From Promethearchaeia archaeon (GTDB lineage Archaea > Asgardarchaeota > Lokiarchaeia > Sigyniarchaeales > SOKP01), in NCBI GenBank assembly GCA_029856145.1, contig JAHQWK010000011.1, forward strand, positions 64,001 through 128,000: a stretch of DNA of 64,000 nucleotides, in the 5' to 3' direction. Shown here piece after piece: positions 60,104-64,000 of this stretch (positions are counted from its first letter, which is position 1; every line of letters starts with the position of its first letter). The position numbers were made by a program, and so were the translations under genes. The notes under the pieces were generated by a model that had not been told where the DNA came from, did no database searches, and worked only from the letters and a program-made list of their open reading frames with translations.

Positions 60104-61492
60104 ATGATTCATAATCCAATAGAAGACCTTAACGAGTTAAAAAAAAACGGTAGGATTATAGGTAAAGCAAACTATGTGTTTACACCGGAGATTTCAAGCT
60201 TAATAGGATCAATTCATGGTAGTTTATTCAAACAAGGAGAATCAGTTGTTATGGGGAGAGACTATCATAATGACAGTCGGATGTTGAAAAGAGCATACAC
60301 CTCAGGTATGATGTCTACTGGAATAAATCTTTTAAACCTTTCAGATTGCACGCTTCCCTTATTGCAATTTACAATAAGGCGATTTGGAGCGAGTGGTGGT
60401 TTTTATTTCTCAGGAGGGCATTTATTTAGTGAAGATGTAGGAATTCGTTTCTTAGATGCAGGAGGAATTGAATTAGCACAATCAGAACTTCAAAGAATAA
60501 TTGAATCTTACAACAACTATCCTCAACAAGTAAGAAGAGTTGATCCTAATGAAATAGGACAAATAACAGCAATACCTCAAACTGCTGATATTTATATTAA
60601 ATCCCTTCAACAATTTGTTAATAAAAAAAAGATAAAAGAGGCGAAATTAAAGATTGTAGTAGATTGTTCTTATGGTCCAACGGGAAAAATAACTCCCCTT
60701 TTAATTAATGATATTGGTGTTGAAGTAATTGCCTTAAATACTCATTACCGCGAAAGATCTTCAAGTCCCGTACCTAGCATTAATACTATACGAAATACAG
60801 CAGACATCGTGAAAGCATCAAATAGCCATCTTGGTGTTTGTTTTGATGTAGATGGCTCAAGAATATTAATAATAGATGAAAATGGGTTGGAAATAACCTA
60901 TGAAGATTTATTAATGCTTTTTATTACCTTTGATAAAAGAATTCAAAAATCTAAAGGGAGCACAATTATTACCACCCCATCAATTTCTCCTGTTGTAAGA
61001 GAATTTATTGAAGATAGTAATTTCCCCATAAAGCAGGTAGAAAATTATCCTGGGGAGATTTCAAGACAAATAAGAGAAGAAAGAGCATGTTTTGCTGCTG
61101 CAGATACATTGAAGTTTTATTTCAGTGAGTATGCTCCCTTTTCTGATGGTAACTTCATTCTACTCAAGGTTCTTGAAATCATGACTGCTCAAAATGATCT
61201 CATTAGCTCGTTATCCAGAGGATTTCCAAAAGGTATAAAGATTAATAAAACAATATCCGTTTCCTCAGATTTAATTAATAATATTCACAATCGCTTAAGA
61301 GAATTAGCAGAACAAAACGGATATAGATATCATGATATAATAAATGAACTGAAGATCATTGGAGATGATGCATACATCATTATAAAAGTTGCACTATATA
61401 GAAATGCAATTCTTCTTTCTGCTGAATCAGAGGATAAAGACAAGGCACAAGAAATGATCCTTAATATGGAAAAGATAATTTCCAAACTTTAA
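60104..61492 (+). CDS. Phosphohexomutase (PGM/PMM)-fold protein with degenerate catalytic motifs
   Basis: GRD..SRMLKRA, KIVVDCSYG and GVCFDVDGSR; the TASHNP loop is replaced by SGGHLF and the GEES loop by AADT. Confidence 0.8.
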   Translation: MIHNPIEDLNELKKNGRIIGKANYVFTPEISSLIGSIHGSLFKQGESVVMGRDYHNDSRMLKRAYTSGMMSTGINLLNLSDCTLPLLQFTIRRFGASGGFYFSGGHLFSEDVGIRFLDAGGIELAQSELQRIIESYNNYPQQVRRVDPNEIGQITAIPQTADIYIKSLQQFVNKKKIKEAKLKIVVDCSYGPTGKITPLLINDIGVEVIALNTHYRERSSSPVPSINTIRNTADIVKASNSHLGVCFDVDGSRILIIDENGLEITYEDLLMLFITFDKRIQKSKGSTIITTPSISPVVREFIEDSNFPIKQVENYPGEISRQIREERACFAAADTLKFYFSEYAPFSDGNFILLKVLEIMTAQNDLISSLSRGFPKGIKINKTISVSSDLINNIHNRLRELAEQNGYRYHDIINELKIIGDDAYIIIKVALYRNAILLSAESEDKDKAQEMILNMEKIISKL

Positions 61493-61551
61493 AACTTTCA
61501 CTCCTAGATGATATTACATAAGTTTATCATCAAAAGTATGATTCTAATCAA

Positions 61552-61605
61552 AATTATTTTAAAACCTTTCTAATTAATTTTATATTAAGAAATTTTAAAA
61601 TAATT
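61552..61605. promoter_or_regulatory. 13-bp inverted repeats flanking a 28-bp core that is inverted relative to the second copy
   Basis: AATTATTTTAAAA (61552-61564) and TTTTAAAATAATT (61593-61605); core 61565-61592 is the exact reverse complement of 62870-62897. Confidence 0.85.
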
Positions 61606-61728
61606 AATCCAGTTATTTTGAATTCATGTTAATAACAGCGATAGATTAAAAAGGCAAAGATAATAATCCCTATAGCGTCGTAGAAGTAATTAAAAAAATT
61701 ATTAAACTTTGGAAAATAAATAAAAATA

Positions 61729-62754
61729 ATGAGCTTGCTAAGTTACATTTTCAAAAGAATACTGATAACAATACCAGTAATATTTGGAGTGTTAACTATA
61801 ACCTTTATACTTTCTAGATCAATGCCGGGAGATCCAGTGATGATACTACTAACTCAGGCGCAAATAAGAATTACACCGGAGATTTATAATGCAATGGTAC
61901 GTGAATTAGGACTTAATCTCCCTATTCATTTACAATATTTTAGATATATAGCTGATATATTTACAGGAAATTGGGGTGAATCTGTTAGTGTTGCTCGCGG
62001 ATCAGACGTTTGGGAATTAATCATTTATAGATTACCTAAAACAATGGACCTTGCTTTTTTTTCAATGCTCATTGCCTCATTTATAGGAATTAAAATAGGA
62101 ATTATTTCAGCAACTCATAGGAATAAAACCAGAGACACCATTTTTAGAAGTTTGGGCATTATAGGAGTTGCTTTTCCCGTATTTGTATTAGGAATGCTTC
62201 TGCAATATTTTTTATCATATCAACTGCACTTATTTCCAGCAACTTACTATAAAAGTATAGAATATAGAGATCCTCCTTTTATAACAGGTTTCTATATGAT
62301 TGATGCACTTTTAACAGGGGAACTCTATAAAATACCAGATTATTTATATCATTTAGCTATGCCTGTATTTTGTTTATCGTTTGTTACTCTTGCGGGAATT
62401 ATAAGACAAACTCGTTCTAGCATGTTAGATGTTTTACAACAAGATTATATAAGAACCGCAAGAGCAAAAGGATGTAGTGAAAAAGGTGTTATTAAAGGTC
62501 ATGCATTAAAAAATGCAATGATTCCGACTGTTACTGTTATCGGATTAAGTTTTGCTACAACATTATCTGGAGCAGTTATTTTAGAATCTACTTTTGGTTT
62601 ACGTGGAATAGGTTTATTATTAATTGATGCTACATTGGGGCTTGATTATTGGCTAATAAACGCATGTATGGTTGTCTTAGCATTTATTTTTATAATTACT
62701 ACTTTGGTAATAGATATCTTATATGGATTTATAGATCCAAGAGTAAGATTTTAA
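61729..62754 (+). CDS. dppB: Peptide/nickel ABC transporter permease (DppB/OppB family), copy 1
   Basis: MPGDPV, LGLNLP..QY, GNWGES, EAA loop RSSMLDVLQQDYIRTARAKG and IDPRVRF. Confidence 0.92.
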   Translation: MSLLSYIFKRILITIPVIFGVLTITFILSRSMPGDPVMILLTQAQIRITPEIYNAMVRELGLNLPIHLQYFRYIADIFTGNWGESVSVARGSDVWELIIYRLPKTMDLAFFSMLIASFIGIKIGIISATHRNKTRDTIFRSLGIIGVAFPVFVLGMLLQYFLSYQLHLFPATYYKSIEYRDPPFITGFYMIDALLTGELYKIPDYLYHLAMPVFCLSFVTLAGIIRQTRSSMLDVLQQDYIRTARAKGCSEKGVIKGHALKNAMIPTVTVIGLSFATTLSGAVILESTFGLRGIGLLLIDATLGLDYWLINACMVVLAFIFIITTLVIDILYGFIDPRVRF

Positions 62755-62890
62755 GTCTAATCTCCGAAGAAGGATAATTAATTTCAGCTCAAACTTAATT
62801 GATATAGTTCTCGATGATAATATAAAAGATTATTACAATACCAGCATTCTAATCTAAATTATTTTTAAATTTCTTAATATAAAATTAATT

Positions 62891-62905
62891 AGAAAGGTTT
62901 AAATA
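62891..62905 (+). promoter_or_regulatory. BRE-TATA promoter of dppB copy 2
   Basis: AGAAAGG followed by TTTAAATA matches the archaeal BRE/TATA consensus; 24 nt before the uORF ATG at 62930. Confidence 0.6.
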
Positions 62906-63031
62906 TAATTATCCAGATATTTTGAATAAATGCTAATAGCAGCGATAGATTAAAAAGGCAAAGATAGTAATCCCTATAGCGTCGTAGAAGTTATTAAAAA
63001 ATTATTAAACTTTGAAAAATAAATAAAAATA

Positions 63032-64000
63032 ATGAGCTTGCTAAGTTACATTTTCAAAAGAATACTAGCGACTATTCCTGTAATATTTGGAGTTTTAACA
63101 ATAACTTTTTTCCTTTCTAGATTGATGCCAGGAGATCCAGTGATGCAATTATTATTACAAGCACAAATAAGACAGGATACTTGGATGTATCGTCAAATTG
63201 TAAATCAATTAGGACTTAATCTCCCTCTTCATTTACAATATTTAAAATATTTAATCGATATTTTTACAGGAAATTGGGGTGAATCTATTGTTTATGCTGT
63301 AGGATCAGACGTTTGGGATTTAATCATTTTTAGATTACCTAAAACAATTGACCTTACATTTTTTTCAATAATCATTGCCTCATTTGTAGGAATTAAAATA
63401 GGAACTATTTCAGCAACTCATAGGAATAAAATCAGAGATACTGTTTTTAGAAGTTTGGGCATTATAGGAGTTGCTTTTCCCGTATTTGTATTAGGAATGA
63501 TTCTGCAATATTTTTTATCATTTCAACTGAAATTATTTCCAATGACTAATTATAAAACTATAGCATATAAGGATCCTCCTTTTGTAACAGGTTTCTATAT
63601 GATTGATGCATTATTAGCAGGGGAACTCTATAAAATACCAGATTATTTATATCATTTAGCTCTGCCTGTATTTTGTTTATCGTTTGTTACTCTTGCGGGA
63701 ATTATAAGACAAACTCGTTCTAGCATGTTAGATGTTTTACAACAAGATTATATAAGAACCGCAAGAGCAAAAGGATGTAGAGAAAAAAAAGTTATTAAAA
63801 AACATGCATTAAAAAATGCAATGATTCCGACTGTTACTGTTATCGGATTAAATTTTGCTAGCTTATTATCTGGAGCAGTTATTTTAGAATCTACTTTTGG
63901 TTTACCTGGAATAGGTTTATTATTAGTTGAAGCTACACTCTATAGAGATTATTGGTTATTAATCTCATGTATGGTTGTAATAGCATTTATTTACATTTTT
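63032..64000 (+). CDS. dppB: DppB/OppB-family ABC permease, copy 2 (3'-truncated by the window edge)
   Basis: Not in the ORF track. ATG at 63032 gives MSLLSYIFKRILATIPVIFG...MPGDPV...RSSMLDVLQQDYIRTARAKG, colinear with copy 1. Confidence 0.92.
   Translation, partial: MSLLSYIFKRILATIPVIFGVLTITFFLSRLMPGDPVMQLLLQAQIRQDTWMYRQIVNQLGLNLPLHLQYLKYLIDIFTGNWGESIVYAVGSDVWDLIIFRLPKTIDLTFFSIIIASFVGIKIGTISATHRNKIRDTVFRSLGIIGVAFPVFVLGMILQYFLSFQLKLFPMTNYKTIAYKDPPFVTGFYMIDALLAGELYKIPDYLYHLALPVFCLSFVTLAGIIRQTRSSMLDVLQQDYIRTARAKGCREKKVIKKHALKNAMIPTVTVIGLNFASLLSGAVILESTFGLPGIGLLLVEATLYRDYWLLISCMVVIAFIYIF

Follow-up and report, generated by a model that had tools for sequence, protein, structure and literature searches.

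A micro-inversion of probable template-switch origin upstream of two tandem dppB genes in a Promethearchaeia archaeon

The upstream regions of two tandem dppB genes of a Promethearchaeia archaeon contain the same 28-bp core in opposite orientations. This difference is most likely a fixed micro-inversion that belongs to a known mutational class and arose when replication switched template at a quasi-palindrome, which is AT-rich and able to form a hairpin. The inversion is located in a 64,000-nucleotide stretch (hereafter the window) of contig JAHQWK010000011.1. The genome under study is designated G000, while G and L numbers denote related genomes or loci and metagenome contigs.

Structure and setting of the inverted element

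The gene order in this part of the window is pgm-like, dppB1, dppB2, a gene for a 222-aa membrane protein, and radA. Among named relatives, the closest mostly carry the label Promethearchaeota (Lokiarchaeia). The genes and intergenic segments adjoining the element are as follows:

60104–61492 (+): PGM/PMM-like gene, whose 3' intergenic DNA is the putative donor of the shared upstream block
61504–61551 (+): native post-pgm intergenic DNA, 35/41 identical to the same place in L070/L071 (a dppB-free relative)
61729–62754 (+): dppB/oppB-type ABC permease, copy 1, 341 aa
62810–62856 (+): diverged copy of the post-pgm DNA, pointing to movement of the upstream block from locus 1 to locus 2
63032–64000 (+): dppB/oppB-type ABC permease, copy 2, 341 aa, with its end 57 bp past the window

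The PGM/PMM-like protein (60104–61492) scored far under every curated phosphomutase cut-off. The dppB genes (61729–64000) have no dppC, dppA or ATPase neighbours. In most relatives dppB is absent at this place (49 of the 59 genome loci, with a similar picture in metagenomes), and one to three copies are present in a small clade comprising G016, G028, G006 and L068/L069. Close relatives thus have between 0 and 3 dppB genes at this place, and L070/L071 seem to have lost dppB.

Both copies of the element consist of a core placed between two 13-bp arms:

61552–61564: left arm of copy 1, 13-bp inverted repeat
61565–61592 (+): 28-bp core of copy 1, orientation A
61593–61605: right arm of copy 1, a perfect match to the left arm
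62857–62869: left arm of copy 2
62870–62897 (−): 28-bp core of copy 2, orientation B
62898–62910: right arm of copy 2, matching at 12/13 positions in this genome and perfectly (13/13) in strain L052

An earlier interpretation made from the window alone (the sequence-only reading) had described the two cores as exact reverse complements between direct flanks, and this was confirmed at the same coordinates. The cores are identical at 28/28 positions when one of them is inverted vs. 12/28 in direct alignment, and the flanks of both copies are direct (35/47 identical on the left and 113/121 on the right). With arm bases included, the exact in-place inverted match between the copies extends to 34 bp. 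When 4000 diverged copies were simulated with point changes only, the longest in-place inverted match was 11 bp, which argues against a chance likeness. A survey of 123 paralogous alignments of the genome, covering 83.6 kb, gave no other in-place micro-inversion, and the element itself has only two copies in this genome.

The intergenic DNA of this genome is 78% AT, and 13-bp inverted repeats occur in it at chance level (6 observed vs. 6.3 in shuffles). The core of copy 1 is partly palindromic, which lengthens the hairpin to 22 pairs; the folding energy of this single-strand structure is −10.7 kcal/mol (z about −3.5). No differences were found between the two copies of the 28-bp core, and the flanks differ by 7–25%. 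The unchanged core is a mild hint of constraint or recency, given that such identity would arise by chance in about 5–10% of cases at 8–10% divergence. An Rfam search gave no match. Two other identities of the element were considered and rejected: (i) a MITE or small mobile element, on the grounds that there are only two copies and that their flanks are homologous, and (ii) a dif-like recombination site, which has an 11-6-11 shape, compared to 13-28-13 here.

Core orientation in other assemblies

The orientation of the core was followed in contigs encoding the same proteins taken from other assemblies, which represent the majority state only, with minority alleles dropped. Orientation A was found at locus 1 in 16/16 same-species samples, and orientation B at locus 2 in 13/13; these are assembled contigs, mostly from one accession series (10–11 samples per locus, one of which may be the genome's own source). 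The flipped state was therefore observed in 0/29 locus-by-sample observations, giving a rough 95% upper bound of 10% for samples that are not independent. A second strain type showed the same states, as seen in L052 (98.4% identical) at locus 2 and in L054 at locus 1. At the assembly level, the orientation is fixed in the sampled populations.

The sequence-only reading had left a choice between an invertible BRE switch tuning promoter strength by phase variation and a fixed, hairpin-mediated template-switch inversion. The second is favoured by the single orientation per locus and by a compensatory arm pair in L052 (described below), while the same uniformity of all assemblies, together with a conserved box about 105 bp further downstream, speaks against the first. 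A search of relatives for the repeat and the core orientation likewise turned out against a switch, since the inverted element is missing from the five related species examined. An outgroup comparison for the ancestral orientation of the core gave a split result (G016, 52 v 47; G006, 41 v 36; G028, 49 v 57; L068, 27 v 25).

Chimeric dppB genes were observed in assemblies L035, L039, L041, L049, L051, L055, L044 and L054, either with a central 18-SNP block swapped or with the copy 1 upstream region fused to the copy 2 gene. The breaks fall where about 50 bp or more of sequence is identical, so that assembler errors are the probable cause; genuine gene conversion or deletion may be the cause instead.

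These chimeras, in genes so close to the element, are what could be held in favour of an assembly artefact, which had been named as the explanation to be expected if the two copies were not jointly spanned. However, contigs from nine samples span both copies, and an artefact of this kind is therefore discounted. Their NODE_ and k141_ name styles probably represent two assemblers, and each element has the same sequence in contigs from many samples. With the simulated maximum of 11 bp standing against the 34 bp found, the probability that the element is an assembly artefact or a chance likeness of AT-rich DNA is close to nil.

An invertible promoter driven by a recombinase (an inverton), of the kind known from Bacteroides and from the fim and hin switches, would account for inverted repeats around intergenic DNA in front of a membrane transporter gene, and 12 putative archaeal invertons have been reported from 42 datasets (PMC10028968). 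Nevertheless, no flipped state was present among the same-species contigs, the arm sequences differ between the two copies, the TATA itself is outside the inverted part, and a spacer of only 28 bp would not allow the looping needed for synapsis (following the argument of PMC8755829). Searches of the 97%-complete G000 assembly for tyrosine, serine and IS110-type recombinases (PF00589, PF00239, PF07508 and PF01548) gave no match. It should be noted that this absence is weak evidence: a XerA-like gene, missing from the G000 assembly, is present in 51/53 genus relatives, and with such a near-universal distribution it is probably just unassembled here. On balance, we consider an inverton extremely unlikely.

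Flipping could also recur in populations by template switching, with no recombinase involved, and yield heritable expression variants in a form of slow phase variation. Spacer flips at perfect repeats do recur in yeast (PMC8604942), copy 1 and L052 copy 2 both have perfect arms, and minority alleles would be hidden by the assemblies. On the other hand, the 29 observations (from non-independent samples) include no flipped state, one copy 2 arm shows decay in this genome, and the element is not conserved outside the species. Recurrent flipping is thus given little credence.

History and promoters of the dppB genes

In trees of the 5' part and the 3' part of dppB, the copies cluster by position (100/100 and 100/98, respectively), whereas in the tree of the middle part the two G000 genes cluster together (94/94). 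The identity of the G000 pair is 87%, compared to 72–74% for the G016 and G028 pairs. Because the trees group the genes by position at the ends and by genome in the middle, and the identity of the G000 pair is higher, dppB1 and dppB2 are old paralogues common to related Promethearchaeota that have been partly homogenised in this lineage.

The interval preceding dppB2 measures 277 bp in G000 vs. 110 bp in relatives, and the extra DNA includes a copy of the native post-pgm sequence, matching L070/L071. We therefore infer that locus 1 was the source of the upstream block now present at locus 2, and that gene conversion or unequal exchange transferred it. The core flip would have happened during or after this transfer of the promoter block to gene 2. 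The sequence-only reading had considered an inversion that diversified expression after duplication; the history found here differs, as the two genes are old paralogues and their common promoter stems from a gene conversion that came later.

The arms of copy 2 in L052 form a perfect 13-bp repeat, separated from the perfect arms of copy 1 by one compensatory pair (A-T vs. T-A). Such a pair could result if a single point change was followed by a single template switch, with inversion of the spacer and recopying of the arm. Two further features are those of known microinversions: the 13-bp arms directly abut the edges of the inversion, exceeding about 9 bp in length, and they are homogenised within copy 1 and within L052 copy 2. 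Arm homogenisation combined with spacer inversion has been described as the outcome of intermolecular template switching, at arms >9 bp (PMC8604942). Polymerase template switching and microhomology break repair have both been offered as mechanisms (PMC8755829), and sequence alone separates them incompletely.

A template-switch origin would involve the following steps. The starting point is the two dppB genes, old paralogues common to related Promethearchaeota. In this lineage about 225 bp of upstream DNA was then transferred from locus 1 to locus 2, and the middle of the dppB genes was homogenised; the trees and the homology show these changes, and gene conversion is their probable mechanism. 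In one of the copies, the polymerase may have jumped between the 13-bp arms and copied the 28-bp spacer backwards, which would have made the arms match and left behind the inverted core and the compensatory arm pair. The inverted state would finally have reached the fixation seen at the assembly level in the sampled populations. Transcription would proceed mainly from a conserved −30 box, and the flip is likely to be neutral or close to neutral, because this box, the presumed main start, is the same in both copies. The box and a second conserved block are positioned as follows:

61608–61621: near-palindromic 14-bp block, copy 1
61692–61706 (+): A-run and TTATTAAA, a BRE/TATA-like box with its start at −30 from the dppB1 ATG
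62912–62925: near-palindromic 14-bp block, copy 2
62996–63009 (+): A-run and TTATTAAA, the same box as in copy 1, with its start at −30 from the dppB2 ATG

The core is placed at −164 to −137 from the ATG, and the −30 box about 105 bp downstream of it. An A-run followed by a TATA-like 8-mer near −30 is kept in all dppB genes at the locus, in five species. Genome-wide, TATA-like 8-mers show a peak at −30 (36 vs. a background of 13.6). The −30 box is probably a leaderless promoter, and a leaderless start fits the lack of a Shine-Dalgarno motif in the dppB genes; Lokiarchaea seldom carry this motif (PMC12993045). A promoter matrix fitted by EM yielded no sharp motif and gave many AT-rich sites similar ranks.

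The 14-bp block upstream of the first dppB is conserved in five species (seen in the window, L032, L033, L034 and L068) amid diverged surroundings; it forms a perfect palindrome in G028 and a 6-6-6 palindrome in G006. As a genome-wide motif, the 14-bp palindrome was not found (0 observed vs. 1.75 expected). Located just after the arm, the block is a candidate operator or regulator site. A 7-codon ORF precedes both dppB genes (61626–61649 and 62930–62953). This ORF probably arose incidentally when the promoter was converted, given that its ATG is changed to ACG in L054 and the ORF is absent in four species (G016, G028, G006 and L068).

A distal TATA candidate, a TATA-like run at −136 in copy 1 and −134 in copy 2, belongs to the right arm and not to the flipped core. 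If it served as a promoter, a fixed inversion could still be functional, changing the BRE so that the paralogues are expressed at different levels. The occurrence of the run in both copies is consistent with such a role, as are the unchanged core, the conserved near-palindrome at 61608–61621, located where one would expect a start site and a repressor, and the start of the 7-codon ORF about 32 nt past the run. However, the run has no fixed position in relatives and is altered in strain L052, and about 10% of random distal 54-mers carry a run of this kind. The small ORF, lost or absent as described above, adds to the case against it, and the second and third dppB copies of relatives have no distal region, yet keep the −30 box. 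A fixed but functional flip is accordingly judged unlikely. The altered TATA of the sister strain also tells against the idea that the BRE-TATA of copy 2 is part of a switch. That a hairpin flip recurs at low frequency, with no recombinase, and swaps the BRE of a distal promoter, giving heritable expression variants of two peptide-transporter subunits, seems highly doubtful.

Significance and comparison with known systems

The locus provides a clean natural example of template-switch mutagenesis and gene conversion in Asgard archaea. A non-exhaustive literature search found no earlier case of an archaeal template-switch micro-inversion. The value of this example is modest, because the mechanism is known across life. 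If flipping with a change in transcription were true, it would constitute a small recombinase-free expression switch in archaeal relatives of eukaryotes, worth real attention. Such a switch would not be the first in archaea, since putative archaeal invertons have already been reported (PMC10028968).

Bacterial invertons (PhaseFinder; PhaVa, PMC10028968; DeepInverton, PMC11602134) show both orientations at one locus in reads; they usually comprise tens to hundreds of bases, are recombinase-driven, and carry the promoter inside the segment. Like them, the element described here is an intergenic segment located upstream of a cell-envelope gene and bounded by short inverted repeats (PMC10028968, PMC11602134). 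It differs in that the conserved −30 box is outside the inverted segment and only one orientation per locus is present in assemblies.

In yeast, spacer inversion takes place at arms >9 bp, and in REG2 it is combined with arm perfection (Abraham and Hazkani-Covo 2021, PMC8604942). The same combination, at arms above this length, is seen here. However, the yeast cases are coding, with 2–5 bp spacers, and some are recurrent, whereas the present spacer is 28 bp long and non-coding, with no recurrence in assembled contigs.

Human-chimpanzee microinversions are exact, 17–33 nt in length, and abut inverted repeats (Potapova, Kondrashov, Mirkin 2022, PMC8755829). The authors of that study attribute those with long perfect arms to template switching, and argue that spacers so short cannot be looped by site-specific recombination. 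The archaeal inversion differs in its host, an Asgard archaeon, and in separating two paralogous upstream regions of one genome, not two species. In its form it resembles the ape microinversions, being an exact reverse complement within the 17–33 nt range, with perfect or near-perfect repeats at its edges.
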